Shown here: piece after piece, positions 2,634 through 19,972 of the stretch
Numbering within the stretch: the first letter of the stretch is position 1
Layout of the letters: every line of letters starts with the position of its first letter
From: Parcubacteria group bacterium Gr01-1014_38
GTDB taxonomy: Bacteria > Patescibacteriota > Andersenbacteria > UBA10190 > CAIZMI01
DNA length: 64,000 nucleotides
NCBI GenBank assembly: GCA_007376145.1
Contig: VMFP01000003.1
Coordinates: 28,741 to 92,740 of the forward strand
Direction of reading: 5' to 3'
Translations under genes and position numbers: made by a program
Notes under the pieces: generated by a model
Databases searched by the model: none
What the model saw: the letters and a program-made list of their open reading frames with translations, nothing else
What the model was told of the DNA's origin: nothing

Positions 2634-2664
2634 CCCGCCAGGAATACTTTTTATCGGCAGACCT
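2634..2664. repeat. 31-bp perfect direct repeat, left copy (island boundary, att-like)
   Basis: cccgccaggaatactttttatcggcagacct is identical to 18276-18306. Confidence 0.85.
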
Positions 2665-2698
2665 GGGTGCCCCGAATGGCATTCGGGTTCCGCTTCAT

Positions 2699-2992
2699 TC
2701 ATCGACGACTATTCCCAGCCCCGGAATGGGTTTGTGTTTCCAGAGCTGCCGACCGTGCGCTGCTTAGCGTTCGCCCAAACGCTCGGATAACGGGGTCAAC
2801 CATCCCGTACCGCTGGATGCTCTCCGCGAGCTGGGCGGTCGCATCCTTGTTCCAGCGGCGGGGGTTGTATGGAGCGGGTTTCAGTAGATCGATAGGGACA
2901 TACTGAATCGCTAGGTCGTGTTTGATCATGTTGGTGTGGAGTGCTTTTGTGCGCATGTTGTGAGATGAAGTGAGATATAAAAAGCCGGACAA
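2699..2992 (-). pseudogene. ParB-like N-terminal domain fragment (truncated)
   Basis: 'YVPIDLLKPAPYNPRRWNKDATAQLAESIQRYGMVDPVI' matches the ParB/Srx N-terminal motif. The frame then degenerates after about 50 aa. It lies just inside the left island repeat. Confidence 0.4.
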
Positions 2993-3186
2993 GATCCCGA
3001 AAAACAGGGATGAAGACTCCCAGTTTTTCAGAAGATTGTCCGGCGTTTTTGATGCTTATAGCATCGCCTACGGGCGTTACCCCGCAGACAACTTCTGTCC
3101 CGACACGGTTTTAAAGAGCTGTCCAAAGTTTAGCGCACTTCGCCATGCCCGTCAAATGCGTGTTCGCGAAAAACGCGCGGTGTCTA

Positions 3187-3216
3187 TTGACAGTAGTTGC
3201 TTAGGTTGTTTAGGAT
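3187..3216 (+). promoter_or_regulatory. Sigma70-like promoter for the island defence operon
   Basis: -35 TTGACA (3187-3192), 18-nt spacer, -10 TAGGAT (3211-3216). RBS GAGG sits 4 nt before the ATG at 3225. Confidence 0.5.
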
Positions 3217-3224
3217 GAGGACTA

Positions 3225-3515
3225 ATGAACGACCTGAAACAAGTTGGTGATTTACCAGGAGCCCAACAGAAGGCGCTCTACACCATTCTCCGCCTGGATA
3301 AGCCTGCATTTCGGACGTCCGACGTCCGCAAGAAGATGGAAGGAACTGCCACGGGCAAGTCCGTCGGGGCGATTCTCAACGCTCTCTTCCGCAACGGCTA
3401 TCTCGAGAAGCTTCAAGGTGGTAGGGATAAACTCTGGAAGCTCTCTGAACAAGCTGAAACTGTCCGTGACGAGATCAGACGGAAAATTTCCGCCGTGAAG
3501 GTCTACTGGTCATGA
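3225..3515 (+). CDS. Small winged-helix-like putative regulator
   Basis: 96-aa ORF with helix-turn-helix-like content. Its stop overlaps the start of the downstream helicase (ATGA), indicating translational coupling. Confidence 0.4.
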   Translation: MNDLKQVGDLPGAQQKALYTILRLDKPAFRTSDVRKKMEGTATGKSVGAILNALFRNGYLEKLQGGRDKLWKLSEQAETVRDEIRRKISAVKVYWS

Positions 3516-6500
3516 ATACGGATCTCACATTCATCACGAACGAGAAAGGCCAGAGCCTGAAGGAGCGATTCGAGGTTCTCATCCGCGACACGAAATTCTT
3601 CGATGCCCTCGTGGGGTACTTCTACACGAGCGGCTTCCATGCTCTCTACAAGCCGCTGGAGAACACGCAGAAAATCCGCATTCTTATCGGGATCGGTACG
3701 AGCAAACAGACACTCGAACTCATCGAGCAATCTCGGCAGAAAACGTTCGAGCTCTCCCACGCCGAGACCAAGCAGGTGTTCTCCGATCTCGTCGCTGGCG
3801 AGATGAGCACCTCGGAGGACAACCGGCACGTCGAGGAAGGAGTACGGAAGTTCACCGAATGGCTTCGGAGCGGCAAGCTGGAAATCCGCGCGTATCCCGC
3901 GGCAGACATCCACGCGAAGGTCTACATCATGTCGTTCGCGGAGGGAGATCGTGATGCGGGGCGCGTTATTACTGGATCGAGCAACTTCACGCAGGCCGGC
4001 CTCGTGGAGAATCTCGAGTTCAATGTCGAACTGAAGAATCGCGCCGACTACGAGTTCGCCAAACAGAAGTTTGAGGAGCTCTGGAAGGACGCGGTGGACG
4101 TCAGGGAGAAGTATCTCGAAACCATCACGAGCCGCACTTGGCTGAACGACACAGTCACGCCCTACCAGCTCTATCTGAAGTTCCTCTACGAGTACTTCAA
4201 GGACGAGCTGCGCCCCGCGGAGGACATGCTCTTCCGGTACATCCCCTCTGAGTTCAAGCGGCTGGAGTACCAAGAGCAGGCCGTTCTGAACGCCAAGAAA
4301 ATCCTCGATGAGTACGGCGGTGCGTTCCTCTCCGACGTCGTCGGTCTCGGGAAGACCTACATGGCCGCCATGCTCGCGAGCCAGCTGGACGGGCGTACGC
4401 TGGTGATCGCGCCGCCGGTTCTCTTGGAGAAAGCGAACCCCGGTTCATGGCCGAGCGTCTTCCCTGATTTCCGCGTTGCTGCCGACTATGAATCTTTGGG
4501 AAAGCTCGATCACTTGCTCAAACGGGGCATCGAAAAATACCAGAACGTGTTTATCGACGAGGCGCATCGTTTTCGGACCGAGTCCAACGTCACGTATGAG
4601 AAGCTCGCGCGAATCTGCCGCGGCAAGCGCGTTGTTCTCGTGACGGCCACGCCGTACAACAACTCGCCCAAAGACGTCTTGAGTCAAATCAAGCTCTTCC
4701 AGACCGGCAAGCGGAGCACCATTCCGAATGTTCCCGACCTGGAATCGTTCTTTAGCCGCCTTGAAAAGCGAGTCCAGCACCTCGATCGCCAGCGGGATCG
4801 CGACGAGTATCTCCTGCGAACCAAGGAAAACGCGCGGGAAATCCGCGAGAAGGTACTGAAGTATCTGATGGTCCGCCGTACGCGGCGGGAGATTGAGCTG
4901 TACTTCGGCGAAGATCTGAAGCGACAGAATCTGCAATTTCCCACCGTAAGCGATCCGGAGCCCGTGTTCTACGAACTGAACGAAGATGAGGACGTAATTT
5001 TCTCCAAGACGATCGAGTTCGTCGCCAAGCAGTTCACGTATGCCCGCTATACGCCTCTCCTGTATTTCAAGGGAGACGTTCCGCAGGTCGATGAGCAGGG
5101 GCAGATCAACATGGGAAAGTTCATGAAGATCTTGCTCGTGAAGCGGCTCGAGAGCAGCTTCCACGCCTTCCGCAATACCGTCGACCGGTTCCTCCACTCC
5201 TACGAGCAGTTCCTCCGCGAACTGGAGCGCGGACACGTGTACGTCAGCAAAAAGTACATCCACAAGATCTTCGAGCTGATCGATGAGGGCGACGAAGAAG
5301 AGATCCAGCGACTCCTCGGTGAGGACAAGGCACAACGGTATACGGCGGCGGACTTTCGCCCACAGTTTAAGAAAGACCTCGAACACGACCTCGCGCTGCT
5401 CCGCGAGATCCGCGTCATGTGGCAACGGGTTACTCGCGACCCGAAGCTACTCACGCTTGTCGAGCTGCTCTCGACGCGTTCCTTATTGAAGAAGAGTAAG
5501 TTGATTCTCTTCACAGAGTCCAAGGAGACGGCCGAGTACATCGCCAAGCACCTCGAGCAGAAGTTCTCGGGCGAAATCCTCCTGTTCACCGGGGCGTCGA
5601 GCGCGCTCGTCCGGGAACGGGTTATTGAGAACTTCGACGCTCGCGCGCGCTTCCCGAAGGATGACTATCGTCTCCTCATCACGACGGAGGTGCTATCCGA
5701 GGGCGTGAACCTCCATCGCTCGAATGTCGTGCTCAATTACGACATTCCCTGGAACCCCACCCGTCTCATGCAGCGCGTCGGCCGTATCAATCGCGTCGAC
5801 ACGGCTTTTAACACCATCCACGCCTTCAATTTCTTCCCCACGCGACAGGCGGAGGATGCCATCAAGCTGCGGGCAGCGGCCGAGGCGAAGATCCACGCCT
5901 TCATTTCGCTCTTGGGAAGCGATGCGCGTCTCCTGACTGATGGCGAACCCATTGAATCTCACGAACTCTTCAGTCGCCTCGTCACGAAAGAGACGATTAC
6001 CGGAGAGCGTGAAGAGGAGGAGAGCGAGCTGAAGTATCTCCGCGTCATCCGCGACATCCGGGATCGAGAGCCCGACTTGTTCGATCAAATCAAACGGCTG
6101 CCGAAGAAAGCGCGGACGGCGCGGAAACATACAGAAGCGCAGCGCCGTCTGATTACATATTTCCGGAAAAGCAAGCTCCAGAAGTTCTTCGCAGTCGACG
6201 GAAGAGAATCCACGGAGCAGGACTTCCTCTCCGCAGCTCGGCTCCTTGAAGCTACGCCTCGCGAGACGCGAGAGTCTCTGGGACCGGATTTCTACGAATT
6301 ACTCGAGAAGAACAGACGCGCGTTTGAACTCGCAACCATTGAGGAAGGATTGCTCGAGTCCCAAGAGCGCAGCGGCCGAGATAGCGCGACCAATGTGCTC
6401 AAGATCCTCCGAGCGATCAAAGACCAGCGTCAGTTTACCGAGGAGCAAGAGGAGTACCTCAAGCTGGTCATGAAGAGGCTCGAACTGGGCGCAGTACCGA

Positions 6501-6694
6501 AGCAGACGACGAAAAAAGTCTTCCAGCAGCTCAGCCGTGAACTCAAGCACGGCATCAATCCGTTGAAACTCCTTGCGGTCGTACAACAGAGCGTCCCACG
6601 CGAATTCCTGGAAAGTCACCGCGCGGAAAGCGCGGCCGACGTGTCCGGCCCGCGCGAAGTCATTCTGTCCGAATACTTCACCACGACGCGATGA
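3512..6694 (+). CDS. PLD-family (HKD) nuclease / SNF2-family helicase fusion protein (restriction-like component)
   Basis: The N-terminus carries a single HKD motif ('HAKVYIM...GSSNFTQAGL'). It is followed by SNF2 motifs: GLGKT, 'FIDEAHRFR' (DEAH), helicase-C ('TEVLSEGVNL', 'QRVGRINR'). Confidence 0.85.
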   Translation: MNTDLTFITNEKGQSLKERFEVLIRDTKFFDALVGYFYTSGFHALYKPLENTQKIRILIGIGTSKQTLELIEQSRQKTFELSHAETKQVFSDLVAGEMSTSEDNRHVEEGVRKFTEWLRSGKLEIRAYPAADIHAKVYIMSFAEGDRDAGRVITGSSNFTQAGLVENLEFNVELKNRADYEFAKQKFEELWKDAVDVREKYLETITSRTWLNDTVTPYQLYLKFLYEYFKDELRPAEDMLFRYIPSEFKRLEYQEQAVLNAKKILDEYGGAFLSDVVGLGKTYMAAMLASQLDGRTLVIAPPVLLEKANPGSWPSVFPDFRVAADYESLGKLDHLLKRGIEKYQNVFIDEAHRFRTESNVTYEKLARICRGKRVVLVTATPYNNSPKDVLSQIKLFQTGKRSTIPNVPDLESFFSRLEKRVQHLDRQRDRDEYLLRTKENAREIREKVLKYLMVRRTRREIELYFGEDLKRQNLQFPTVSDPEPVFYELNEDEDVIFSKTIEFVAKQFTYARYTPLLYFKGDVPQVDEQGQINMGKFMKILLVKRLESSFHAFRNTVDRFLHSYEQFLRELERGHVYVSKKYIHKIFELIDEGDEEEIQRLLGEDKAQRYTAADFRPQFKKDLEHDLALLREIRVMWQRVTRDPKLLTLVELLSTRSLLKKSKLILFTESKETAEYIAKHLEQKFSGEILLFTGASSALVRERVIENFDARARFPKDDYRLLITTEVLSEGVNLHRSNVVLNYDIPWNPTRLMQRVGRINRVDTAFNTIHAFNFFPTRQAEDAIKLRAAAEAKIHAFISLLGSDARLLTDGEPIESHELFSRLVTKETITGEREEEESELKYLRVIRDIRDREPDLFDQIKRLPKKARTARKHTEAQRRLITYFRKSKLQKFFAVDGRESTEQDFLSAARLLEATPRETRESLGPDFYELLEKNRRAFELATIEEGLLESQERSGRDSATNVLKILRAIKDQRQFTEEQEEYLKLVMKRLELGAVPKQTTKKVFQQLSRELKHGINPLKLLAVVQQSVPREFLESHRAESAADVSGPREVILSEYFTTTR

Positions 6695-9600
6695 CGAGAG
6701 AACAAGCGAAGCAACTCGTTCAAGAAGCGCTCCAGAGGCCGTTCGACAAGGGGGGCTTTGTTCGTCTCGTGCGTAACCTCCTGAATCACTTGGAGGATGC
6801 CCCGTTTACCTACAGCGGCAACACGATGCGCCACGCGTATGCAAATGCCGTCAAGTCGCTCGAGCGCATTGGGAAGTACGAGGACCCAGAGGGGAGGAAA
6901 ATCGACGTGCTTGTCGTGAATCTCCGGCATGTCCACGCACTCGACCATGCCCGCACGATGCAACGGAACTTCATCGCGTGGTATCTCAATGGCAGTCGCG
7001 GAGACGTTTTCAAAGATGCAGCACTCGTCGCCTTCCATGCTGACGATGCGCCCGATTGGCGCTTCTCGCTCGTCCGCATGGACTATCGCCTCACGAAATC
7101 CGGCGAGAAAGTGAAGGCGGTCACGGAACTCACGCCAGCTCGGCGCTTTTCATTCTTGGTTGGGCAGCATGAAAAGACGCACACCGCGCAGAAGCAGCTC
7201 CTGCCAATCCTCGAGGATGACACACACGATCCGCTTCTTTCTAACCTCGAGCAGGCGTTCAGCATCGAGACAGTTACAAAGGAGTTCTTCGGGCGATACC
7301 GCGACCTCTTTCTTGAAACGAAGGAAGCGCTGGACAAAGTTGCCCGACGTGATAACGCCGTGCGAGAGGAGTTTTCCAATAAAGAAGTTGATACCACCGA
7401 CTTCGCCAAAAAACTTCTCGGGCAGATCGTCTTTCTCTACTTCCTCCAGAAGAAGGGGTGGTTCGGCGTGGCGCGGACGGGCAAGTGGGGTTCGGGGCCG
7501 AAGAATTTTCTTCGACAGCTTTTCGAGAAGAAGCATGGAGACTACAAGAACTTCTTCAATGATATTCTCGAACCCCTATTCTATGAGGCGCTCGCGAAGG
7601 AACGCGACAATGATTTTTACAGCCGCTTCAACTGCAAGATCCCATTTCTGAACGGTGGACTCTTCGATCCCATCTACAACTACGATTGGGTACACACGGA
7701 CATTCTTCTTCCCGATGAGTTGTTTTCAAATACTTTGCGGACAAAAGAAGGCGATATTGGGGCGGGCATTCTCGATGTCTTTGACCGCTATAACTTCACC
7801 GTCAAGGAAGACGAACCGCTGGAAAAGGACGTCGCCGTTGACCCGGAGATGCTCGGAAAGGTCTTCGAGAATCTCCTAGAAGTTAAAGACCGCAAGTCCA
7901 AAGGCACGTATTACACGCCGCGTGAGATTGTCCATTACATGTGCCAGGAAAGCCTGGTGAACTATTTGGCCGCAGAACTCGAGGGTATGGTGGGCCGAGA
8001 GGACATCGAGACGCTCATCAAGTATGGGGAGACAGCGGTTGAACACGACCGGCACGTTGAAGAAGGGGGAGAGACGCCGACGTACCAACACCGACTTCCC
8101 GAGGCGGTTCGCGCACGCGCGAAAGTGATCGACGACAAGCTCGCGGATATCCGCGTCTGTGATCCCGCGGTCGGCTCCGGAGCCTTTCCAGTCGGGATGA
8201 TGAACGAGGTTGTTCGGACACGCAACGCACTCACGAATTACGTTGAAGACAAAGATGATCGCTCAATGTACGAATTCAAGCGACACGCGATTCAGAGCTC
8301 TCTATATGGCGTGGACATCGATCCCGGCGCGGTCGAGATTGCCAAGCTCCGACTTTGGCTCTCGCTCGTCGTCGATGAAGAGGACATAAAAAAGATCAAG
8401 CCGCTACCCAACCTAGACTACAAAATGGTGCAAGGCGATTCGCTTTCGTCTGTTCAGAAGAATCTATTCAACCAACCGTTGTTTAATAAGCTTGAGGAGC
8501 TTAAACCCAAATTCTTTGAGGAGACCAATGCGCGCAAGAAGCAGGAGTATCGGCGGCAGATTGATGAACTTATTGATCAAATAACTAGAGGACACAAAGA
8601 TTTTGATTACGAAGTGTACTTCTCAGAAGTTTTCCACGAGAAGAAGGGGTTTGATGTTGCAATCGCAAATCCTCCATATCTCCAGATTCAGAAGATGGCA
8701 AAATCAGAAAAAGAGCGTTTCAGAAAGATCTTCAGAACTTTTTCAAAGACCGGAGACATTTACTGCTTGTTCTACGAACGGGCCATTCAGATATTAAAAC
8801 AAGACGGTACCTTGACCTTTATCACGTCGAATTCCTGGTTACGGGCAAGATACGGTGAGCTACTGAGAAAACTTTTGATTGAAAAGGCAAATCCTGTCCG
8901 GCTAATAAATTATGAGGATGCGCGGATGTTTGAACATGCTATCGTCGAAACCAACATCCTAATCGCTCAAAAATCCCAGTGGAATGGCCGTCTCCATGCC
9001 ACCACCGTCAAAAATAACAACTTAAATGCTTTGCCACTTGACGAGTATGTAAAGGGAAATACCTCCGTTATTAGTGACTTGGGAGTCGATAGCTGGAATA
9101 TCGCCGACAAAGCATCGTCTGGCCTAAAGAAGAAAATTGAAAGCCACTCAGTTTCGCTAAAAGACCTGAACGTTTCAGTTTATCGTGGTATTACAACGGG
9201 TTTCGTCGAGGCATTTGTTGTCGATGAGGAGATCAGGAGAAATTTAATCACTCAAGATGAAAAAAGCGCGGAAGTAATTAAGCCTGTCTTACGCGGGCAA
9301 GACGCAGGTAGATATTTCTATGCTTGGAAAGGACTTTGGCTAATAACGCTGCAATCAGGATGGACGAATAGAAATCGGGGCGGGAAAAGCCCGGAAAGTT
9401 TTTTTGCTGAAACCTATCCCGCAGTACACGAATATCTTAAAGGAGTAGGCTCCAAGATAAAAATTGGAGCGATTAAGGCGAAGGGAAAAGGATTATATGG
9501 TCGTGATGACCAAGGTGATTATTGGTGGGAACTCAGGGATTGTGATTTTTACTCCGAGTTTGAGAAAGAAAAAGTTATCTGGGGAGAGTTGTCTGATAAA

Positions 9601-9996
9601 CCGAAATTTACCTATGACGATCAGAAGTATTACGCACTTGATACCCTATTCGTAATGACGGGCGAATCTCTGAAATACTTGTTAGCAATTCTCAATTCGA
9701 AAATTTCCGAATGGTACTTCGCCCAAATCTCGACGAGTTCTGGCATGGGAACCACTAGATGGAAGAAGTACAAAATTGAACAGTTTCCAATAAAAAAGAT
9801 ATCTAAGGAGGAACAAAAGCCGATTGTACACCTAATCGATAAAATACTTTCCCTAACGATGGGCGAGGACTATTCGGCAAGCGATACGAAGCAAGCCAAA
9901 GTCCGCGAATACGAAAGACAAATCGACCAGCTCGTCTATAAACTCTACGGTCTTACACCAGAGGAGATTTCAATTGTTGAGCAAGGCAATGGCTAA
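6691..9996 (+). CDS. Eco57I/PglX-like gamma-class N6-adenine DNA methyltransferase with C-terminal specificity region
   Basis: Motif I 'DPAVGSGAFPV', motif IV 'ANPPY', and an N-terminal 'IVFLYFLQKKGWF' helix typical of type IIG/BREX PglX-like methyltransferases. No nuclease domain is present. The start overlaps the helicase stop (ATGA). Confidence 0.85.
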   Translation: MTREQAKQLVQEALQRPFDKGGFVRLVRNLLNHLEDAPFTYSGNTMRHAYANAVKSLERIGKYEDPEGRKIDVLVVNLRHVHALDHARTMQRNFIAWYLNGSRGDVFKDAALVAFHADDAPDWRFSLVRMDYRLTKSGEKVKAVTELTPARRFSFLVGQHEKTHTAQKQLLPILEDDTHDPLLSNLEQAFSIETVTKEFFGRYRDLFLETKEALDKVARRDNAVREEFSNKEVDTTDFAKKLLGQIVFLYFLQKKGWFGVARTGKWGSGPKNFLRQLFEKKHGDYKNFFNDILEPLFYEALAKERDNDFYSRFNCKIPFLNGGLFDPIYNYDWVHTDILLPDELFSNTLRTKEGDIGAGILDVFDRYNFTVKEDEPLEKDVAVDPEMLGKVFENLLEVKDRKSKGTYYTPREIVHYMCQESLVNYLAAELEGMVGREDIETLIKYGETAVEHDRHVEEGGETPTYQHRLPEAVRARAKVIDDKLADIRVCDPAVGSGAFPVGMMNEVVRTRNALTNYVEDKDDRSMYEFKRHAIQSSLYGVDIDPGAVEIAKLRLWLSLVVDEEDIKKIKPLPNLDYKMVQGDSLSSVQKNLFNQPLFNKLEELKPKFFEETNARKKQEYRRQIDELIDQITRGHKDFDYEVYFSEVFHEKKGFDVAIANPPYLQIQKMAKSEKERFRKIFRTFSKTGDIYCLFYERAIQILKQDGTLTFITSNSWLRARYGELLRKLLIEKANPVRLINYEDARMFEHAIVETNILIAQKSQWNGRLHATTVKNNNLNALPLDEYVKGNTSVISDLGVDSWNIADKASSGLKKKIESHSVSLKDLNVSVYRGITTGFVEAFVVDEEIRRNLITQDEKSAEVIKPVLRGQDAGRYFYAWKGLWLITLQSGWTNRNRGGKSPESFFAETYPAVHEYLKGVGSKIKIGAIKAKGKGLYGRDDQGDYWWELRDCDFYSEFEKEKVIWGELSDKPKFTYDDQKYYALDTLFVMTGESLKYLLAILNSKISEWYFAQISTSSGMGTTRWKKYKIEQFPIKKISKEEQKPIVHLIDKILSLTMGEDYSASDTKQAKVREYERQIDQLVYKLYGLTPEEISIVEQGNG

Positions 9997-11032
9997 GCGT
10001 CTTACTATTATTCTCGGTGCCGGTGCATCCTATAGCGTCAATCCGGATGGAAAGGCACTTGATACCCCTGGTTATCGACCACCTCTCGCGCATGAGATTT
10101 TTCGAGGTAGTCGAGAATTTAGAGTTATTTTGAATAAGTATCCACTCGCGGAACTCCTCGCAAGTGATATCGATCGCCGCATAAAACAGAACCGACAAGG
10201 AGTTGGGCTCGAACAAATCTTGCGTAGTTACGAGCAGGAAGTAACGGCGGGACGTGATTCACACATCGCCCGTCAGTTTTTGCAAATCCCTCTCTATCTT
10301 AATGAATTGTTCGGAGAGATAACGACTCACTTTACCAAACAGCCCGATGAGTACAACAACCTCGTGAATATAGCGCTCGGTCACCTCGATGAAGTTCTGT
10401 TTCTGACTCTGAATTACGACAATCTTTTTGAGATAGCGTTATCTCGAATCTCTAGCGTAGATTTTTCTGCAGAGCATCATTATACGCACGATGACAAATG
10501 GAAGCTCGTTAAACTTCACGGGTCGGTCAACTGGTATCGCCAGTTTTCGGGCTATCAGATTACAGAAGCAAGTGACAAGGAGTATTTTGCCCAACTGCAG
10601 CGCACTCCTCTTCCTCTTCAGCTTGACGATCGATTCATTTTAACGAGCCTACACGAGCATGCTCGGAAGTACATCGGGAACGCTCCTGTATATCCAGCAC
10701 TCACGGTACCCGTCGATGGAAAGTATCAACTGAATTCGCCGCCCGAGCATATTCAGTCCGCGACGGATTTTCTCTCAGGGTGCGAAAACTACCTCATTAT
10801 CGGCACGAGTGGTCGTGATCGCGATTTACTTGACCTGCTCCAGCAGCACGCACGGCAAGGGAAAGTTTTGGTTGTTGGGAGAGAGCAAGAAAATGCCGAG
10901 CGCACGAAGAGGAATTTTCAGGAAGTTGTCCCACAATTTCGATCTGATATGTCTGTGTATTCTCACCCGAGAGGATTCAGTGAATTTGTTGACAGCGGAG
11001 CACTGGACGAATTCTTACATAAGATCGCGTAA
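9986..11032 (+). CDS. SIR2-like (SIR2_2 family) NAD-dependent domain protein
   Basis: N-terminal 'TIILGAGASYS' Rossmann motif and 'KLHGSVNW' His motif typical of defence-associated SIR2 domains. The ATG at 9986 overlaps the 3' end of the methyltransferase. Confidence 0.7.
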   Translation, partial: AMAKRLTIILGAGASYSVNPDGKALDTPGYRPPLAHEIFRGSREFRVILNKYPLAELLASDIDRRIKQNRQGVGLEQILRSYEQEVTAGRDSHIARQFLQIPLYLNELFGEITTHFTKQPDEYNNLVNIALGHLDEVLFLTLNYDNLFEIALSRISSVDFSAEHHYTHDDKWKLVKLHGSVNWYRQFSGYQITEASDKEYFAQLQRTPLPLQLDDRFILTSLHEHARKYIGNAPVYPALTVPVDGKYQLNSPPEHIQSATDFLSGCENYLIIGTSGRDRDLLDLLQQHARQGKVLVVGREQENAERTKRNFQEVVPQFRSDMSVYSHPRGFSEFVDSGALDEFLHKIA

Positions 11033-11042
11033 ACATTCTGTC

Positions 11043-11372
11043 ATGTATCATCGTATATTTTGGGAACGGAAGGTCGAAGAAATACCTTGTCGTTGCTGTG
11101 GCTCGTTTAAAGCGACGCTCCGTTACAGTAAAGACGCTGAAAAGCTTTTTAAGGAAAAACTGTTTGAGCAATTTCGCGAGCACGCATACTGGAATCACTG
11201 GTATAACAAACACTACAACTGCGTGCGCTGCGGCCAATGGATTCCACCTGCTGAACGGGAACTAATCGTGGCCCATGGTTACCCCATCGATAATGTCCAT
11301 CCCGATTATTGCAAGGAGGAACAGCCCCATCTTCTTCGCATACACCGTCGCTGCCTAGATGAGTTATCGTAA
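11043..11372 (+). CDS. Small HNH-type endonuclease-like Zn-finger protein
   Basis: CxxC...CxxC pairs and 'AHGYPIDNVHPDYC' are consistent with the HNH fold. The start is taken at the internal ATG (MYHRI...) just after the SIR2 stop rather than the long overlapping upstream extension. Confidence 0.45.
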   Translation: MYHRIFWERKVEEIPCRCCGSFKATLRYSKDAEKLFKEKLFEQFREHAYWNHWYNKHYNCVRCGQWIPPAERELIVAHGYPIDNVHPDYCKEEQPHLLRIHRRCLDELS

Positions 11373-11377
11373 GTCGT

Positions 11378-11881
11378 ATGCCACAGTGCACTTCCTGCGG
11401 ATCGAGCGATTTCACACAGTACGGCCCTTACGCGGGCAGAATTGTTGCTGGAGGTGAAGTTCCTGATCTTAAGGATCAGATCATTGCGAGAAAATGTTCA
11501 GCCTGTGAATATCTTCAACTGGAAAAGCAGCTTACATCGGGCGTGAGAGTTGCCACAGCGCATATTGTAAAGGAAGGTCGTGCTGAGGACGTGCAACGGA
11601 TCATCGTCCGCTTCCTCTCCGACGAGCCGGATCAAAACGCTTTAATAAAGGAGTTCTACATCTGGCTTACCCAAGTATTCGTCGAGGATTTATTGAGACT
11701 TAAGGAGAGTGCAGAGGCACATGATTTTCTTCAAGCTGCAATTTTGGTTGCTGGATCGGAGTATAGAAAGGCGCATCAAGTGCCGAAGTATGGCGGAGTA
11801 GATTGCAGGGAGGAGTTTGGCGGCTGTCGGATCGTCTCCCGTCCGGAGACGTACAACTATCCTATCAAGCCGGATGTGTGA
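11378..11881 (+). CDS. Hypothetical protein with N-terminal zinc ribbon
   Basis: CTSCGS...CSACEY motif. Tightly spaced in the same plus-strand array. Confidence 0.4.
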   Translation: MPQCTSCGSSDFTQYGPYAGRIVAGGEVPDLKDQIIARKCSACEYLQLEKQLTSGVRVATAHIVKEGRAEDVQRIIVRFLSDEPDQNALIKEFYIWLTQVFVEDLLRLKESAEAHDFLQAAILVAGSEYRKAHQVPKYGGVDCREEFGGCRIVSRPETYNYPIKPDV

Positions 11882-11924
11882 ATTTTCCCACGATTTTTCT
11901 GCCTTATAACTGAACCAAAAGCAC

Positions 11925-13136
11925 ATGATAGCGCGCAGAGATACACCAAACTATAGAATATACGCTCTAGTCATTGGAGAGATACTTCGGCCAGGAAAAC
12001 TATTTGATTGCGAGATTAAAGAAATGAGTTTTGTAGAACAAGAAAAGAGAAGATTTTCCCCCATTGAGAGTGTTTTTTCTGGGAGGCACGGTGGAGATAG
12101 CAAAACTTACGCCACGCGCCTGCCTTACGTGGATCCGATGAGAATTAAGTCGGAACGTGTGGTTGTGTGCGATATTGATGAGGATGACGTAAAAGCTGCT
12201 CTAGGAGGCGCGATTAGACGAATTGAGAGGCTGTGCCGATTTTTGTCGGTCGCATATGTCGAAGATGCGAAGAAGAATTTTAGGAGAGAGCGCTTTGGAC
12301 TAACGCCATACCTCTATCAAGTAAACAAAGTCTACTCACTTGATACCGGCGGAAAGGAGCTAGATGCAGGCTTCAAGTTGGAAAGTGACTATGTTTATCT
12401 ACCGAATAGGCCTGAGCTCAACCAGTGGCGGCACAAAGAAACCGAGAAATTTCTGGAAGATATTTTTATTTTTCATGACGAGACATTAGAGCGAGCAATT
12501 AAGTATCTGTATCGATCCTCCATCGGACACTTTGTGGGAGATAGTCCTGAAAAAAGAGCTCTCGACCACATAAAATCAATCGAAATCATCTTGAATTCTC
12601 TATCAAGTAAAAGAAAGTTCGAGGGCAAGCTTAACGAGGCTGCTAACAAAATTGATCTCACCGAGAACGAGAAAGAAGCAATAAAGAAACTTTGGGAGAA
12701 TAGGTCGCGTTATGGTGACGTTGCCCATCCTTCTCCCTTCGATCAAGTTGAACGGTACCCAAACCAGTTCCCATTACCCAGTAATGTTCGATATCCGGGA
12801 GGAATCCATGACTCAATCGCGATCAATGTTTGTTTGAAGTACTTCTCCTACAGGAGAAGTTTATATGTCATAGACATAGAGAAGCCTTTTCGTGGTGAGG
12901 GCGTATCCAGCGACAGACAGGACGAAGAGGATATTATCGGTAATGTAAACCCCCAGTGGGAGAGCAACCACTTGTTTTTTAGGACTTCCGAAAAGGAAGA
13001 GAAAAAGCTTACGAAAAAAATACGACAGGCATTCGCTCGCGAATATGGAATTAGCGAAGGTCGTATTCTCAATGTTGTCGTTAAGCGGATTAGGAATAAG
13101 GAGAGCGTTATTGTAAGAGTGCAACCAACTGCGTGA
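11925..13136 (+). CDS. Hypothetical protein, possible HEPN-like (Rx5H) Abi-type effector
   Basis: 403-aa ORF. The 'RSRYGDVAHP' segment fits the Rx4-6H HEPN signature. No other recognisable domain. Confidence 0.4.
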   Translation: MIARRDTPNYRIYALVIGEILRPGKLFDCEIKEMSFVEQEKRRFSPIESVFSGRHGGDSKTYATRLPYVDPMRIKSERVVVCDIDEDDVKAALGGAIRRIERLCRFLSVAYVEDAKKNFRRERFGLTPYLYQVNKVYSLDTGGKELDAGFKLESDYVYLPNRPELNQWRHKETEKFLEDIFIFHDETLERAIKYLYRSSIGHFVGDSPEKRALDHIKSIEIILNSLSSKRKFEGKLNEAANKIDLTENEKEAIKKLWENRSRYGDVAHPSPFDQVERYPNQFPLPSNVRYPGGIHDSIAINVCLKYFSYRRSLYVIDIEKPFRGEGVSSDRQDEEDIIGNVNPQWESNHLFFRTSEKEEKKLTKKIRQAFAREYGISEGRILNVVVKRIRNKESVIVRVQPTA

Positions 13137-13166
13137 TAAAGCACCCTATTGGATTAGTGGAGCACC

Positions 13167-13643
13167 ATGGAAATCCTCGACGAGCAGCAAATCATTGAAA
13201 GGCGCCGGGAAACCGAGCAAGGCCTTGTGGATCTCCTCGAAGAAACGGGAAGCGATTTCGGTTTGGATGACATCAAGGAGATCATCTTCAACGAAGACGG
13301 ACAGGACGACCTCACCGACATCATTGCGATGTTCGATACCGGTCAGGGCGCGGCCGAACTTCAGGATGTTCTCGACCTCGTCACCGACGCCTGGAATTGC
13401 TTTCCACACAAATCTTTAGGCGGCCTCTCGCCGGCGGAGAAGGTGCTGGCATATCAGCAACGCAGCGACGGAGCGCCGGACCACCCGTCCGCGAATACCG
13501 TAGGAGGTGTTGGGGTATTCGTTTGTCGATGCGACGATCCCCACTGCGCGAAGTGCCTTCTCGTCAATTGCGAAGACAATCACTGCTCCGTCCACACGAA
13601 GGAACGAAAAGAGGCGTTCCGCAGAACATACCGCCAGCGATAG
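13167..13643 (+). CDS. Acidic hypothetical protein
   Basis: 158 aa with a strongly D/E-rich N-terminal half and a Cys/His-rich C-terminus. Last gene of the plus-strand array. Confidence 0.35.
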   Translation: MEILDEQQIIERRRETEQGLVDLLEETGSDFGLDDIKEIIFNEDGQDDLTDIIAMFDTGQGAAELQDVLDLVTDAWNCFPHKSLGGLSPAEKVLAYQQRSDGAPDHPSANTVGGVGVFVCRCDDPHCAKCLLVNCEDNHCSVHTKERKEAFRRTYRQR

Positions 13644-14120
13644 CTACGCGGTGGGCAGTAACCCGCCTTGCAAGAGAGGAAGTTTGATTAAATCACGGAG
13701 CTGATCGGGATTTTTGGCAAGATCAACCTCAACCCACGAGGCGAAGGCGTTATGTCGCTGAAGCACGGTCTTCTCCTCTTCAAACACATCGTCGTCAAAC
13801 CAGAGGAAATTTCGTGAGAAATCAATCGCTTCTGTTTTCAGCGTCGTCCAATTAGTAGGCTTCACTTGCCGTAACAGAGATAGAGTCTCAGAGGGTAGGT
13901 ATCGTGACAGAATACGGAGAGGCTGGGCCGTATCTCCTTTGCAATGCGTCGTGAGCCAATAGGTTTGATAGCGCTCGACGACGTACCGAATGAACGCATC
14001 AACATGCCGCGCTGGCTGCTTATCGTTTGCCAACAAGACTCCGTCGATGTCGAGATAAATGTCCATATGCTCATCATAGACCTTTCCGCCGCGTTCTCCG
14101 TAGTCTAGAGTATGATGCAA
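13644..14120 (-). CDS. HAD-superfamily hydrolase (nucleotidase/phosphatase-like)
   Basis: Motif I 'IYLDIDGVLL' (DxDG) and a late acidic motif 'FLWFDDD'. Confidence 0.55.
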   Translation of the reverse strand: MHHTLDYGERGGKVYDEHMDIYLDIDGVLLANDKQPARHVDAFIRYVVERYQTYWLTTHCKGDTAQPLRILSRYLPSETLSLLRQVKPTNWTTLKTEAIDFSRNFLWFDDDVFEEEKTVLQRHNAFASWVEVDLAKNPDQLRDLIKLPLLQGGLLPTA

Positions 14121-14140
14121 ATGATCAGCCGAATTCGCTT

Positions 14141-14632
14141 ATGACAGGATTCATTGTTGCGGCACTTATTGTTGTTGGCGGCATCGTCCTATATGCATTG
14201 CGACGCATGTTTCGCCACGGCGGGCGAATCACCAAGTATTTCGAAAATGCCGTGACCGTCTATATCTGGCTGGGTGAAGAAGATGCGCGGATTGCAGCCG
14301 TCACTGCCGCCAAGGTAGCGGCGAAAAGGCAGAGAAAACTCATGGCAGGGTATCTGAAACTACACGCAGAGCTATCCGAAATTTCGATTATTCCGGAGGC
14401 ACAGGAATCCATCCAAACCCTTCGAGAGCTCATAGATGACATTGAAGCCAAGGAGTGGAGTATACGGGACATCATGAAGGCAAAGGATAAACTCGAAGCA
14501 AGCAATCCTGAATATCTCAGGGCACTGAATAGAGCAGATAGTGGGATTTTTCCTCGAAAGTATCCGCGACTATTTGCGGCAAAGAGTATTCGCGAGACTG
14601 CTGCAATCGCCAAGAAAATGCAGAGCAGTTAA
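14141..14632 (+). CDS. Hypothetical single-pass membrane protein
   Basis: 'MTGFIVAALIVVGGIVLYAL' TM helix then a charged coiled-coil-like region. The start is chosen downstream of the overlap with the opposing HAD gene. Confidence 0.35.
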   Translation: MTGFIVAALIVVGGIVLYALRRMFRHGGRITKYFENAVTVYIWLGEEDARIAAVTAAKVAAKRQRKLMAGYLKLHAELSEISIIPEAQESIQTLRELIDDIEAKEWSIRDIMKAKDKLEASNPEYLRALNRADSGIFPRKYPRLFAAKSIRETAAIAKKMQSS

Positions 14633-14643
14633 GCGTTCATTCT

Positions 14644-15258
14644 GTGGCCACAGTAACTGAAAAATCGCTCGCGGAATTCAAACGAATCTACAAGAAGGAA
14701 TACGGCAAAGATATAGGCGACGCCGAGGCGCGCGACGCCGCGCAGCGCTTGCTGGACGTGTTCAAGCTTCTTCTTGATGTGGATAAGAAGGAGCGAGCAC
14801 GACAACTCAAGCTCAAGGAATCCCCAAAAGGATACCACCTCACCGACGGCACCTACAGCTGTTGTGTCTGCGGGAAGCAGGTCTCCGGTGAAGGAAGTTG
14901 GTACGACAAGCACGGCATTAAGTGCCTTCTCTGCCAGCGGGCGGTCGAGCAGCGAAAGATTCCGGTCAGCGTCTGCACGAACAAAGACAGCTGGTATGCC
15001 ACGTGGGAACTCGCGTACTACTACAAACTGAAATCACCGACGATCCGCAAGCTTGTTCGCAACGGCACCCTGAAAGCCCGCATCGTGCCGCACGAGAATG
15101 GAAGCCCATACTTTTCCGTCTTTCTGGTCAAGGACAACCTCGGTGTTCTTCAACCGAAACCGAAGCCGAAGATCGTTCACGTAGACGAGCGAACCATCAC
15201 CGTCGAGTCCCCGGGATTAACGCTGGGGATTACCAGCCAAAATCTACCCCATCCGTGA
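14644..15258 (+). CDS. Hypothetical Zn-finger protein
   Basis: 204-aa ORF (apparent GTG start) with CCVCGK...CLLCQ motifs. Confidence 0.4.
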   Translation: MATVTEKSLAEFKRIYKKEYGKDIGDAEARDAAQRLLDVFKLLLDVDKKERARQLKLKESPKGYHLTDGTYSCCVCGKQVSGEGSWYDKHGIKCLLCQRAVEQRKIPVSVCTNKDSWYATWELAYYYKLKSPTIRKLVRNGTLKARIVPHENGSPYFSVFLVKDNLGVLQPKPKPKIVHVDERTITVESPGLTLGITSQNLPHP

Positions 15259-15330
15259 TTAAGGCATCTTTACAGAAAGGCCACTCTCTACAATAATTCA
15301 TTGTTCTTGGCGGTACTAATTTTTAGAAAA

Positions 15331-15354
15331 CGCCTGCATGGTGACATGCAGGCG
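15331..15354 (-). terminator. Rho-independent terminator (perfect 10-bp stem)
   Basis: cgcctgcatg-gtga-catgcaggcg hairpin, with a T-run on the minus strand (plus-strand ttttagaaaa immediately 5'). It lies between convergent genes. Confidence 0.6.
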
Positions 15355-15369
15355 TGAAGTTACCTTGAT

Positions 15370-15939
15370 CTATACGGATCTATATGACTCAAAGAGCTTC
15401 GCGATGGATTCCATCACGCTGATCTCTGTCTCGACATCGCACAGATCATACTTTCCAGAGAAGCCGTCGATGACCTTCGAGACGTAGGCTATCAGCCTGT
15501 CTGACGAAAACAAGTCGATCCTGGCGACAAAGAGACTTTTCCTGTTTTCTTCTATCAGTTTCCGAACCGAGAGCGGCACCTTGTCAGATAACATCGGCGG
15601 ATGCAGGAGGATGATCGGCTTTGCGTGTAAGATCGCATAGGCCGTTTCAATGCTCGCGCTTTCACCGATATATCCGCGATGCCTTCCGTGCTTGTTATGC
15701 ACGATGTGAACAGGATTTGTTCTGATCGCCGCGAAGAAAGCCAACTCGACATCGTAGAACGACTGGTCGGCGGTAGGCATAAACGTAACCGGCGTGCCTT
15801 GGTATTCTCCGACGATCTTGTCGCTGAATGGGAACTGTACCTCGATCCCCGCTGCAACCAATCTTCTCTTCAGGTTGAAAATTCCCCTATCTCTCTTGGA
15901 GAATTTCCCGCTCATTTGTGTTTTCATCGTGTCCGGCAT
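15370..15939 (-). CDS. Nucleoside 2-deoxyribosyltransferase/DNPH1-like fold protein (paralog A)
   Basis: 'GYIGESASIETAYAILHAKPIILL' aligns with 'NYIGGNSFLEIGYAHIVGKKIFL' of the 17557-17979 protein. It carries the conserved Glu typical of N-glycosidic-bond enzymes of this fold. Confidence 0.45.
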   Translation of the reverse strand: MPDTMKTQMSGKFSKRDRGIFNLKRRLVAAGIEVQFPFSDKIVGEYQGTPVTFMPTADQSFYDVELAFFAAIRTNPVHIVHNKHGRHRGYIGESASIETAYAILHAKPIILLHPPMLSDKVPLSVRKLIEENRKSLFVARIDLFSSDRLIAYVSKVIDGFSGKYDLCDVETEISVMESIAKLFESYRSV

Positions 15940-16006
15940 TACACGACCTCCTTTCTGTTTGAGGCTAAGAAAAAGGCGGCGTGGAAACCCAGCCGCCCAA
16001 TGTTGC

Positions 16007-16663
16007 CTACAAAGCCGTGATTTCTAGCTCCTTAAAGAGATCGGCGGGAACGGCGAATGTCGTCTTCGCTTTGCTCCTCAAGTCGGAAGGCCTGCCGAGT
16101 ATTTCTTCGGCATGGTCAATCGACCCATACCAAAGAGACTTGAACTTCGCCTCTCGCATGCCCTGCATGTCCATATGAGCGACATGAAGCACGCCGGGAT
16201 CAGATTCTTTCATAACTTGTCGGTACTCCGGCTTCGGCTTGCACCGAAATGTAATTTCGGTAAAGAGCGCCTGACGGGTTTTGGGCAGAAAATCGAATCC
16301 TCCGAAGCCGAGCATCCAAGACACCTCTTCTCCGACTCGCACGCGGTATCCGAGGCAGATGCTGTCTTCGCATTCTTCCGCCGATCCCAGAAAGATGCTG
16401 TTGACCTTTTTGAAGGCAAGCAGGAGTTCCTTGAGATCGTCTCGCTTCAAGACTTTCGGAAAGATGATGCTTTTGGTGGAGATTTTCTCGTCGCTGATCG
16501 CTTCTTGGATGAGCGACTCCATTTGTTGCGGATCAACATCGGCAACAGAGAAGTACCACCCGAACTTTTCAGGATCGGAGGCGGCGTGAGCCGCAAAGAG
16601 ACACCCCGCATTTCCTTGCCGGTAGAACGCAAGCTGGTCCTCGACGATGCGTCTCTCAAGCAT
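16007..16663 (-). CDS. Hypothetical protein
   Basis: 218-aa ORF in the same minus-strand cluster. No confidently recognised domain. Confidence 0.4.
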   Translation of the reverse strand: MLERRIVEDQLAFYRQGNAGCLFAAHAASDPEKFGWYFSVADVDPQQMESLIQEAISDEKISTKSIIFPKVLKRDDLKELLLAFKKVNSIFLGSAEECEDSICLGYRVRVGEEVSWMLGFGGFDFLPKTRQALFTEITFRCKPKPEYRQVMKESDPGVLHVAHMDMQGMREAKFKSLWYGSIDHAEEILGRPSDLRSKAKTTFAVPADLFKELEITAL

Positions 16664-16797
16664 ATGAACCTCTCTTTCTGTGGGTTGTTTTTCCAGAGAA
16701 CAAACGGGCCTACATCATAAGCCTATTACCCATACTGTCAACATCTTGGGCGATGATACATAAACCCTCTGCCAAAGAGGGTTTATGAGTCGGCGGG

Positions 16798-17553
16798 CTA
16801 CGAAATTGCCAGAGTAAATATCTTTTTATATTTTCTCAAATATTGACTCCGGTCTTTCCTGCGATATTGAAGAACAAATCTTGGATGTTCCAGAGCATGT
16901 ATCTTTTCGAAAAATCCGTATTCTTCGTTTATGCCCTGAAACACTTTGAGATTCGTTCCCGTGCCCAGCACAATGGCCAGCCTTCTGTTTGCGCCGAAAT
17001 CAATTTGTTTTTTTACGGTCTCTACGAGAAACGGCCGTATTCGAGAAAGAAAACCCGCGTCATCATAGTAATTGTAATTCCTGTTGTCTCGGACAAAACC
17101 AACAGGACAAACCGCAGTCAAGAAAAACGACCCATAAAACGCTTGTACTCCGCCGAGTTTGTTGATGACTTCATAGACAAACCCAGAAGTAAGCTCGCGC
17201 TTTTTCTCAAGCGAGTTGGGAATGCGGCAATACTCCTGTAAGGCTACTGGATCTGTAAAGGGAACCCCCGTGGTTCCGGATCCGAATCTGCCCGGATTGA
17301 TGCCAAAGGCGAAGATACGGTTCTGCGTATCCGAATAAAACTTGTCATAAAACTCCTTTGCGTATCCTCGTGTCTGCGGATGTGCATACGGATAGATGAT
17401 TTCCATTCCAGGCAATAAGAGTTTGCGAGGGAAAACAAGAGTATTGTAAAAATCCAGCACTCGCTCGCCGAATGTCTGTTTCTTGGCCGATTTTTTCATC
17501 TGTAACCTTTCCTTTCTTTCGATTGTTAAAGAGCGCTCTCGGGTTACCATCAT
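16798..17553 (-). CDS. Uracil-DNA-glycosylase superfamily protein (MUG/TDG-like GINPG motif)
   Basis: 'GINPGRFGSGTTGVPFTDP' matches the family-2 (MUG/TDG) motif A, and a later 'EHPRF' is a possible motif B. The true start may be the internal MKKSAKK (17499). Confidence 0.5.
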   Translation of the reverse strand: MMVTRERSLTIERKERLQMKKSAKKQTFGERVLDFYNTLVFPRKLLLPGMEIIYPYAHPQTRGYAKEFYDKFYSDTQNRIFAFGINPGRFGSGTTGVPFTDPVALQEYCRIPNSLEKKRELTSGFVYEVINKLGGVQAFYGSFFLTAVCPVGFVRDNRNYNYYDDAGFLSRIRPFLVETVKKQIDFGANRRLAIVLGTGTNLKVFQGINEEYGFFEKIHALEHPRFVLQYRRKDRSQYLRKYKKIFTLAIS

Positions 17554-17556
17554 ATA

Positions 17557-17979
17557 TTAGCGTATTAAATTCAAGTCGCCATTAATAATCATTGGCCGCA
17601 CTGCTTCAATCTCCTGTTGAATCAATTCAATATCGGGAATTTCGTTCATCAAGAAAATTTTCTTGCCCACAATGTGGGCATACCCAATTTCCAGAAAGGA
17701 ATTGCCTCCGATGTAATTTTCTACGCCCTTCTTTTCGTAGTTCAACACTAAAATTGCATCAGAATGCGCTATAAGCTGGCAATGTTTGCGGATAAGATCG
17801 TTCGCCATCTTTCTTTGAGCGCCTTCCGATCCGCCCATGTTGTTTTTATCAACGCGGCCGTTGGCGTACTCTTCAGTTCCTTCCGGGATAAACACTGTAT
17901 GACCACGCTTTTCGATTTCTTGTCTGGCAATAATCATTTCCTTGGCAAAGGCCATACTGCCACAAAGAGTTATTTTCAT
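17557..17979 (-). CDS. Nucleoside 2-deoxyribosyltransferase/DNPH1-like protein (paralog B)
   Basis: 'MKITLCGSMAF...' Rossmann-like start and 'NYIGGNSFLEIGYA' catalytic-Glu region typical of the NDT/Rcl family. Confidence 0.55.
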   Translation of the reverse strand: MKITLCGSMAFAKEMIIARQEIEKRGHTVFIPEGTEEYANGRVDKNNMGGSEGAQRKMANDLIRKHCQLIAHSDAILVLNYEKKGVENYIGGNSFLEIGYAHIVGKKIFLMNEIPDIELIQQEIEAVRPMIINGDLNLIR

Positions 17980-18112
17980 ACTTACTTGGCTTCACACATC
18001 AATAAAGGGACATTTCTTTTCTCGTCCGTGATGAGTTCACATTCCACAAGGCGCAGGGATTGATTGCTATTTCCCATGCAGGAAGCGTGTCATAACACAG
18101 CGATCTCGTCCA

Positions 18113-18162
18113 AAATGAGACACGGAGGCTTCCTCCTTTATACTGTCTCATTTGTCTCATTT
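18113..18162. repeat. Inverted/tandem repeat element near island right end
   Basis: aaatgagaca (18113-18122) is inverted relative to tgtctcattt (18144-18153). tgtctcatt is then directly repeated (18153-18161). Confidence 0.5.
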
Positions 18163-18275
18163 CCCTCTCAAACCCCCGAAAGTTGCGCCCCGACCCACTC
18201 CCCTCCCCGTATCTAGAAAAGCGTCCGAAAAATCCCTAAACTCCCTCGAGGGGTCCGGGTTCCAGACCCATATGT

Positions 18276-18306
18276 CCCGCCAGGAATACTTTTTATCGGC
18301 AGACCT
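18276..18306. repeat. 31-bp perfect direct repeat, right copy (island boundary, att-like)
   Basis: Identical to 2634-2664. It is fused to the 14-bp head (gacccatatgtccc, 18265-18278) of the 57-bp repeat family. Confidence 0.85.
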
Positions 18307-18335
18307 ACATGGTTAGATAGTTTTAAAATGATTTT

Positions 18336-19292: not shown

Positions 19293-19314
19293 ACACGCCC
19301 CATCATTCGCCTCC

Positions 19315-19371
19315 GACCCATATGTCCCAAGTTCACTCCCGAATTGACCTTTAATAAATCCCTCAATACAC
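19315..19371. repeat. 57-bp cassette-flanking repeat (copy B)
   Basis: gacccatatgtcccaagttcactcccgaattgacctttaataaatccctcaatacac is about 81% identical (46/57) to 19973-20029. Confidence 0.7.
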
Positions 19372-19396
19372 AAAAAACCATGGTTAAACAAGAAGT

Positions 19397-19957: not shown

Positions 19958-19972
19958 TAATGCCACGTTTGC

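Follow-up and report, generated by a model that had tools for sequence, protein, structure and literature searches.

This analysis concerns a 64,000-nucleotide stretch of DNA, here called the window, from Parcubacteria group bacterium Gr01-1014_38 (contig VMFP01000003.1, positions 28,741 to 92,740), a bacterium of the candidate phyla radiation (CPR). A 31-bp sequence, CCCGCCAGGAATACTTTTTATCGGCAGACCT, is present in it as two exact copies, at 2634-2664 and 18276-18306, both on the plus strand, and the first-pass annotation took the pair for the attachment (att) sites attL and attR of a single integrated island. The 31-mer is part of something longer: it is made up of a core of 5-7 bp, CCGCC(A), and the adjoining 24 nt from the right arm of an element of ~120-140 nt, which occurs in further copies next to the pair and in other samples. 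The single-island model is an incomplete account of a family of junction elements that organises a stacked cassette array in this CPR genome.

The 31-bp repeat and the junction element

In two contigs of the JGI data set Ga0213870 (L015 and L016) an identical 31-mer lies inside a longer homologous element, where it forms the 3′ end of a ~120-nt element starting with CGACCCAnATGCC. An element profile built from the L015/L016 copies and run on the window (nhmmer, E ≤ 10) finds four copies, J1 to J4, all within 17.5 kb and none in the remaining 44 kb. The junctions, and the units that lie beside and between them, are as follows.

2146-2633, no strand: left (B-side) flank of J1, ~490 nt, with no credible open reading frame (ORF), tRNA or Rfam match
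2634-2676, plus strand: J1, core CCGCC(A) and right arm (P′) only; profile positions 98-139; includes 31-mer copy 1
2660-2676, plus strand: motif M, GACCTGGGTGCCCCGAA, within J1
2665-18275, no strand: module E1, 15.6 kb, genes on both strands; no internal element copy (nhmmer, E ≤ 10)
18188-18324, plus strand: J2, full element; nhmmer E 1.5e-32
18336-19292, plus strand: cassette gene, 318-aa Mrr_cat-like restriction endonuclease (PF04471, E 1e-5), outside the repeat pair
19311-19386, plus strand: J3, left arm (P) only, without core and P′; nhmmer E 2e-17, profile positions 3-97
19397-19957, plus strand: cassette gene, 186-aa protein of unknown function, with homologues 77% and 70% identical in L019/L020 and L021, respectively
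19969-20098, plus strand: J4, full P arm, core CCCGCCA at 20060-20066, right flank unrelated to P′; nhmmer E 3e-36

As seen from these copies, a full site comprises a ~90-nt left arm P, the 5-7 bp core, and a right arm P′ starting with the near-invariant GGAATACTTTTTATCGGCAGACC. J2 follows this layout, with a diverged P arm (18188-18275), the core and P′ in the form of 31-mer copy 2 (18276-18306), and a trailing arm. J3 is 81% identical to 19972-20029, within J4. Direct repeats flank the inserted DNA, as is expected of a tRNA-targeting integrative island: the 31-bp repeat is exact, and by alignment the core is common to all four junctions. A motif of ~17 nt (motif M), GACCYnnRTGCCYnnAA, is found at both outer ends of the element, once at the left extreme of P and again, in the same orientation, at the right extreme of P′; a directly repeated outer motif of this kind resembles the arm-type sites of a lambda-type attP. 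The core itself matches the last acceptor bases, the discriminator G and the CCA of tRNA-Ser, and when the 24 nt before it are set in register against the 3′ end of tRNA-Ser(CGA), 10-12 of the 24 positions agree (random 6.3 ± 2.1, 99th percentile 11). This suggests that the last ~25 nt of P, which resemble the T-arm and acceptor end of tRNA-Ser, may be tRNA-derived. No inverted repeat was reported at the element, and neither of its strands folds better than shuffled sequences, whether as DNA or as RNA, with z values between -0.95 and +1.65.

The repeat is real, and it is recombination-related. The bases bordering its two copies differ (c or t before, g or a after), so that the identity is exactly 31 bp. 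No third copy is present in the window, at up to 3 or at up to 10 mismatches, and 100 dinucleotide shuffles gave no match, the chance expectation being none. As 31 bp is also a common assembler k-mer size, independent data were checked. A Logan contig assembled at k=31 from SRR8863434 stops at window position 2663, one base before the 31-mer ends, as expected where the repeat makes the assembly graph branch. Taken with the length of the repeat, this exact break could point to an assembly artefact, that is, a chimeric join or loop at a k=31 de Bruijn node. However, the break shows only that the 31-mer has two read contexts, the contexts of both copies are biologically coherent, and the identical 31-mer recurs within longer homologous elements of independent assemblies and samples; an artefact is scarcely credible. 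The exact match, the shuffles and the independent contigs uphold the statement of the first-pass annotation that the same 31 bp stand at both sites. Another Logan contig of the same sample (L017) starts at window position 18837, inside the Mrr-like gene and not at the repeat; a coverage gap or a variant are possible causes.

Several other identities for the repeat were considered and set aside. A coding sequence was dismissed because the ORFs that cross it do not look genuine and an indel separates related copies. As for a viral origin, the 31-mer, a 22-mer and the left-arm pattern are all absent from IMG/VR, and the single 18-mer match there (L018), located within a coding region of an AT-rich contig, seems to be due to chance. 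Searches for a non-coding RNA or a tRNA at the left repeat with Rfam (gathering and E-value thresholds) and ARAGORN (default, intron, tmRNA and relaxed settings) gave nothing credible.

Related loci and the common breakpoint

The element forms a multi-copy family with members at further loci and in further samples, and is not unique to the island. Besides L015 and L016, homologues of the 186-aa protein (19397-19957) in Logan contigs gave access to three loci, L019 (SRR22387915), L020 (SRR22387923) and L021 (SRR18502801). In L019/L020 a tRNA-Ser(CGA) gene, of which the 3′ end in L019 reads ...CACCGCCA, is followed at once by GGAATACTTTTTATCGG, an Mrr_cat gene, a 187-aa homologue of the 186-aa protein and a full element. 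L016 has a tRNA-Ser(TGA) gene (...TTCCGCCA), then TCAATACTTTTTATCGGCAGACCTAC, small ORFs of low GC, one full element and a further ORF; the last 18 nt of its insert, at 2077-2094, repeat the tRNA 3′ end exactly. A tRNA 3′ part serving as one of the repeats is seen in the related arrays L016 and L019, with tRNA-Ser in both, and not in the window. In L021 the order is a 245-aa gene with the 186-aa homologue (70%), element, the 318-aa homologue (72%) with a 78-aa gene, element, a 269-aa gene, element. The window has the opposite order, 318 aa, element, 186 aa, element. The two genes belong to separate units in L021 and have swapped places between the two arrays, as cassettes that are independently mobile units bounded by repeats would do.

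The first 1320 nt of L019 hold a partial 5S rRNA gene and a 381-aa ORF that overlaps it by a few bases (weak LAGLIDADG and helix-turn-helix matches), and then comes the tRNA-Ser(CGA) that starts the array. More distant homologues of the cassette genes, in L022, L023 and L024, are without the element and were not taken as members; two of them lie within a few kb of large serine recombinase genes and probably belong to a different vehicle. In L022 (10640-12328) the recombinase gene is immediately adjacent to a 193-aa homologue, and in L024 (14993-16569) a split large serine recombinase gene abuts tRNA-Gln, with the Mrr homologue ~4 kb away. This cargo may therefore use other vehicles as well.

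Around the shared CCGCC, the P side (90 nt to its left) and the P′ side (45 nt to its right) were compared separately among all copies of the element; random identity is 0.49 ± 0.03 for P and 0.48 ± 0.05 for P′. The two arms assort separately:

J4 and L019b (both after the 186-aa gene): P 0.87, P′ 0.49
L016b and L021c: P 0.83, P′ 0.43
L015 and L021c: P 0.79, P′ 0.44
J1 and J2: P 0.50, P′ 0.72
J1 and L016b: P 0.49, P′ 0.81

In the alignment every break falls within CCGCC(A), the two tRNA junctions included, so that homology breaks at a fixed short core. Arms with different neighbours have thus been rejoined at one core of 5-7 bp, which is what site-specific recombination is expected to leave behind; neither general homologous recombination nor the spreading of a repeat would give this pattern. 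The pattern bears directly on another explanation, according to which the element is a non-recombinational repeat, derived from a tRNA trailer or similar to miniature inverted-repeat transposable elements (MITEs) or repetitive extragenic palindromes (REPs), possibly a processing or terminator signal, that was spread by duplication while homologous recombination shuffled the genes. The most conserved part of the element does stand directly after tRNA-Ser genes and might act as their 3′ trailer, a perfect identity of 31 bp is long enough for RecA-dependent exchange, and no recombinase was found. Against this, the breakpoints of at least five independent comparisons fall within the same 5-7 nt, and copies occur solely at the boundaries of variable genes. 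Terminal inverted repeats, target-site duplications and a stable fold are all absent from the element, scans found no sigma-70 promoter or intrinsic-terminator consensus in the 31-mer or the elements, and L016 carries a classical 18-nt duplication of a tRNA 3′ end. We therefore hold this explanation to be quite unlikely.

The outer ends of the array in the window behave differently from the inner ones. The sequence to the left of J1 shows no relation to any P arm, and the sequence to the right of J4 none to any P′ arm; judged from these comparisons, J1 and J4 appear to be hybrid junctions at the two outer ends of the array. Against all left arms and both tRNA-Ser genes, the left flank of J1 shows identities of 0.41-0.52, which is the random level; over its last 24 nt it agrees with tRNA-Ser 3′ ends at 10-11 positions, which is a weak signal. 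The stretch 2560-2700 (141 nt, of which the first 74 nt are in this flank) has GC-rich hairpins, with a fold z of -1.5.

A proposed array of stacked modules

We read the two 31-mers as the junctions J1 and J2 of a tandem array, extending from 2634 to ~20066, of at least three inserted modules that lack a recombinase and use a tRNA-Ser-type att site, and we give this reading a probability of roughly 60%. A module would be built as core/P′-genes-P/core, with P′ at its left and P at its right end, and strand exchange within CCGCC(A) would insert, excise and reshuffle modules, presumably through a tyrosine-type integrase that is encoded elsewhere and acts in trans. Modules would enter at tRNA-Ser 3′ ends or at secondary sites, the one used in the window lying between cofE and the RRM gene, and successive insertions would stack them. 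The outermost junctions would then be hybrids, J1 being flank-core-P′ and J4 P-core-flank (P-O-B′), and the internal ones would be complete (J2) or decayed (J3), the loss of core and right arm at J3 having fused the Mrr-like and 186-aa cassettes. The 15.6-kb defence module E1 would be one inserted unit of the array, the one nearest the left hybrid junction, with the Mrr-like and 186-aa genes as older neighbours; the direction and order of insertion given here are those that we infer. The 31-bp identity would correspond to the core plus 24 nt of conserved P′ from two modules, E1 and the Mrr-like cassette. The conservation of P′ could be due to its acting as the tRNA 3′ trailer once a module has integrated, so that the arm would double as the trailer of tRNA-Ser; the near-invariant 22-24 nt after the core also follow intact tRNA-Ser genes.

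With two further copies of the element to the right of the pair, the inserted region ends near 20066 and not at 18306. The ancestral empty site predicted by the stacked-module reading is accordingly 2633/CCCGCCA/20067, that is, ...CAGCAGTCC/CCCGCCA/CCAGTATGAAATATCGGG, and not 2633/31-mer/18307. Loss of E1 would leave ...CAGCAGTCC/31-mer/ACATGGTTAGAT, and the junction of an E1 circle would read ...GACCCATATGT/CCCGCCAGGAATACTTTTTATCGGCAGACCT/GGGTGCCCCGAAT.

Part of the attL/attR proposal of the first-pass annotation is kept in this reading: junctions that resemble recombination sites bound an inserted 15.6-kb unit without an integrase of its own. What does not hold is the pair as the two ends of one element, since the 31-mer is core plus right arm and further copies lie at 19311-19386 and 19969-20098. 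The annotation had also named dispersal of the repeat as something that would speak against integration, and only half of this applies: the element is multi-copy, yet its copies cluster at cassette boundaries and none is found in the other 44 kb. In its strict form the proposal would be that of one 15.6-kb element, integrated by an integrase of its own that was later lost, in which the 31-mer makes up the whole identity block of attL/attR. A perfect direct repeat does flank the unit, E1 has P′ on the left and P on the right as an integrated circle would, and the truncated ParB_N fragment at 2699-2992 suggests a deletion by the left repeat that could have removed an integrase. However, the two more copies on the right bound further foreign low-GC genes, the homology of the right copy to other elements reaches ~90 nt to the left of the 31-mer, and in other samples this sequence forms the borders of unrelated cassettes. 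Moreover, the two copies of the 24 nt that follow the core are part of different modules and so are not the duplication made by one insertion. A single island of this kind is unlikely.

Base composition was the other ground on which the pair had been taken as a border. The host DNA at 20.2-64 kb has a G+C (GC) content of 0.617 ± 0.033 in 2-kb windows, with a minimum of 0.547; the remaining segments compare as follows.

1-2633, left flank: GC 0.562
2665-8300, first part of E1: GC 0.555, near the low end of the host range, like the left flank
8301-18275, remainder of E1: GC 0.473
18307-20095, beyond the right repeat: GC 0.430, the lowest

An AT-rich block thus runs from ~8.3 to ~20.2 kb, beginning inside the methylase gene of E1 and passing the right repeat by ~1.9 kb. 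That the DNA between the repeats is AT-richer than the flanks is correct from 8.3 kb onward and not before, since 2665-8300 equals the left flank, and the lowest GC lies outside the pair. Composition does not track the repeat pair. The first gene of the window (115-1095), for an HPr-kinase-C/P-loop-like protein, has a GC of 0.53, below the host range, and the left flank may itself not be core genome.

The genes of E1 and those that flank the array are listed below.

1339-2145, minus strand: cofE-like gene (F420-0:gamma-glutamyl ligase family), PF01996 E 9e-68, GC 0.592; left host flank
2699-2992, minus strand: truncated ParB_N fragment, PF02195 profile positions 3-44 of 95 only
3512-6694, plus strand: HKD (PLD) nuclease fused to a Snf2-type helicase; Pfam PLDc_2, SNF2-rel_dom and Helicase_C; PADLOC PDLC01075 'HKD+Snf2', E 2e-51
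6691-9996, plus strand: Eco57I/type IIG-like N6-adenine methyltransferase with TaqI_C specificity domain; Pfam Eco57I E 1e-42, TaqI_C; PADLOC REase_MTase_IIG, 1140 bits
9974-11032, plus strand: SIR2-like protein (SIR2_2), PF13289 E 1.4e-8; weak PADLOC SIR2 matches
11378-11881, 11925-13136, 13167-13643, 14027-14632 and 14644-15258, plus strand: ORFs without family match, within 11033-15258
13644-14120, minus strand: ORF without family match, within the 11033-15258 run
15370-17979, minus strand: four-gene run of two unknown ORFs, a uracil-DNA glycosylase (UDG)-superfamily gene and a deoxyribosyltransferase-like gene
16798-17553, minus strand: the UDG-superfamily gene, PF03167 E 7.6e-12
17557-17979, minus strand: the nucleoside 2-deoxyribosyltransferase-like gene, PF05014 E 0.006, weak
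20237-20557, plus strand: RRM RNA-binding protein gene, PF00076, GC 0.536; right host flank

The ParB_N fragment runs on into non-homologous sequence and has no continuation in the downstream frames; it is likely a deletion scar beside J1. A 71-nt imperfect palindrome (2979-3049, 73% self-complementary) lies between this fragment and a small ORF at 3225-3515. Within the methylase gene the GC content drops from ~0.55 to ~0.42 near 8300, the AT-rich half being the C-terminal region that includes TaqI_C, and this break suggests that the target-recognition half has been swapped. Most genes between 11 and 16.7 kb are without a family match, the ORFs at 11033-15258 having none in Pfam, PADLOC or NCBIfam. 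The minus-strand run at 15370-17979 could be a DNA-base modification or defence module. Of the gene classes that had been assigned to the interval between the repeats, the restriction-like, SIR2 and nucleotide-processing ones are recovered there (HKD+Snf2, type IIG-like, SIR2, UDG and, weakly, deoxyribosyltransferase), except that the Mrr_cat gene lies outside the pair; the HNH and HEPN-like genes find no support from Pfam, PADLOC or NCBIfam. On the right, a promoter scan places a promoter-like site for the RRM gene at 20104-20133, just after J4. The rest of the window is housekeeping in character (dnaG, rpoD, tRNA-Asn, purD, type IV pilus genes and glycosyltransferases); a 407-aa protein encoded at 24824-26047, without a Pfam match, ends in a long C-terminal proline run (PPPPPPPLPPPPPP).

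A number of observations weigh against an array of stacked modules. No tRNA is found at the left boundary in the window (2.1-2.7 kb), even by relaxed and intron-aware ARAGORN, and the likeness of the P arm to tRNA-Ser is statistical only, the Rfam tRNA model giving the arm no score. The homology of the J2 P arm appears marginal in score but exact in position: a P-only profile built without J2 has its best non-training match at 18212-18270, directly before the core, with E 0.066. E1 is 10-15 times larger than the other modules, compositionally mosaic, and has the truncated ParB_N beside J1; it may be a composite with decayed inner junctions. No Phage_integrase, Resolvase or Recombinase match was obtained among the ~50 ORFs scanned in the window, which agrees with the first-pass annotation in its finding of no integrase there, and no recombinase gene is present in the element-bearing contigs L015, L016, L019 and L021. 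The comparison of sites draws on a small sample, only ~10 independent element copies from ~4 samples. Neither an empty site nor a circular form was observed. In the case of the empty site, this is because the searchable collections hold no syntenic relative that is close enough: cofE-based relatives in genome contigs reach at most 49% identity, the closest relatives of a 499-aa flanking gene (74-76% identity) are without synteny on the island side, and exact-protein look-ups matched only the source metagenome-assembled genome and one Logan sample.

For annotation, the locus shows that both copies of a perfect direct repeat may belong to a larger family of junctions, in which case island borders and empty sites predicted from the two copies alone would be wrong. 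If the sites are active, they would provide for cassette exchange with modules that have no integrase, for entry of the tRNA-Ser type, and for sites that can be found by profile. CPR bacteria have tiny genomes, and to our knowledge the acquisition and turnover of their defence genes are poorly documented; literature searches returned nothing specific. Should the sites be active, the flexible gene pool of the lineage would become directly searchable, and there would be a concrete substrate for identifying the recombinase. A broader proposal, tentative and to us still doubtful, is that CPR bacteria or Parcubacteria possess a platform that is integron-like without being an integron. Its defence cassettes, of one to several genes, would each carry a double-stranded att site of ~120-140 bp with arm-type repeats, derived from the 3′ end and trailer of tRNA-Ser. 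Their capture, at tRNA-Ser 3′ ends or secondary CCGCC sites, and their stacking and reshuffling would be the work of a recombinase that is encoded in the chromosome and acts in trans, and the right arm of a cassette would restore the tRNA trailer after each insertion.

Comparison with known systems

The attP of heterobivalent tyrosine integrases of the lambda type has a short core and long arms. The element described here would share with it the short core, the arms with a directly repeated motif, and the hybrid outer junctions of attL and attR type. It would differ in that complete attP-like junctions persist between the modules and that no integrase or excisionase has been identified. Recombinase-less modules stacked in tandem at one chromosomal site are also known from Xer-dependent systems, such as integrative mobile elements exploiting Xer (IMEX) and the pdif modules of Acinetobacter, which are mobile without a recombinase of their own. 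In contrast to these, the core region shows by eye no dif-like palindrome of 11-6-11 structure, and the sites are tRNA-like and far longer.

The most obvious comparison is with integrons and with clusters of attC sites lacking integron integrases (CALIN). One could suppose that the array is of this type, with attC sites recombined as folded single strands by IntI. The cassettes are mostly small, promoter-poor and on the same strand, each followed by a site of ~120 nt; no recombinase lies within them, their order is permuted between genomes, and they carry defence cargo. In sedentary chromosomal integrons, too, the repeats within one array are alike. Nevertheless, the hairpin with paired R″/R′ and L″/L′ boxes that defines attC is missing, as the element folds no better than shuffled sequences, and its ends lack the RYYYAAC and GTTRRRY boxes, the left end reading CGACCCA.... 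Homology breaks at CCGCC, ~30 nt inside the right end of the site and not 6 nt from it. Scans of the window found no intI, and the arrays of L016 and L019 start at a tRNA-Ser 3′ end instead of an attI beside intI. An integron-type array is thus very improbable.

The closest documented behaviour would seem to be tandem accretion at tRNA genes, of which the tycheposons are an example. These elements of Prochlorococcus islands integrate at tRNA genes, tRNA-Ser(TGA) being among those labelled, they are flanked by partial tRNA repeats, and new arrivals push older ones deeper into the island (bioRxiv 10.1101/2020.12.28.424599). The islands contain scattered partial tRNAs and degenerate elements, with defence or niche-related cargo (bioRxiv 10.1101/2020.12.28.424599). 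A tycheposon has a tyrosine or large serine recombinase and a replication module beside its cargo, neither of which is present here, so that only the remnant-like architecture would be common to the two, and the array in the window is not beside a tRNA. In the CPR host, on the other hand, the modules go down to the size of a single gene, and in place of a tRNA fragment of ~40 nt the repeat is a composite of ~120-140 nt with conserved arms.

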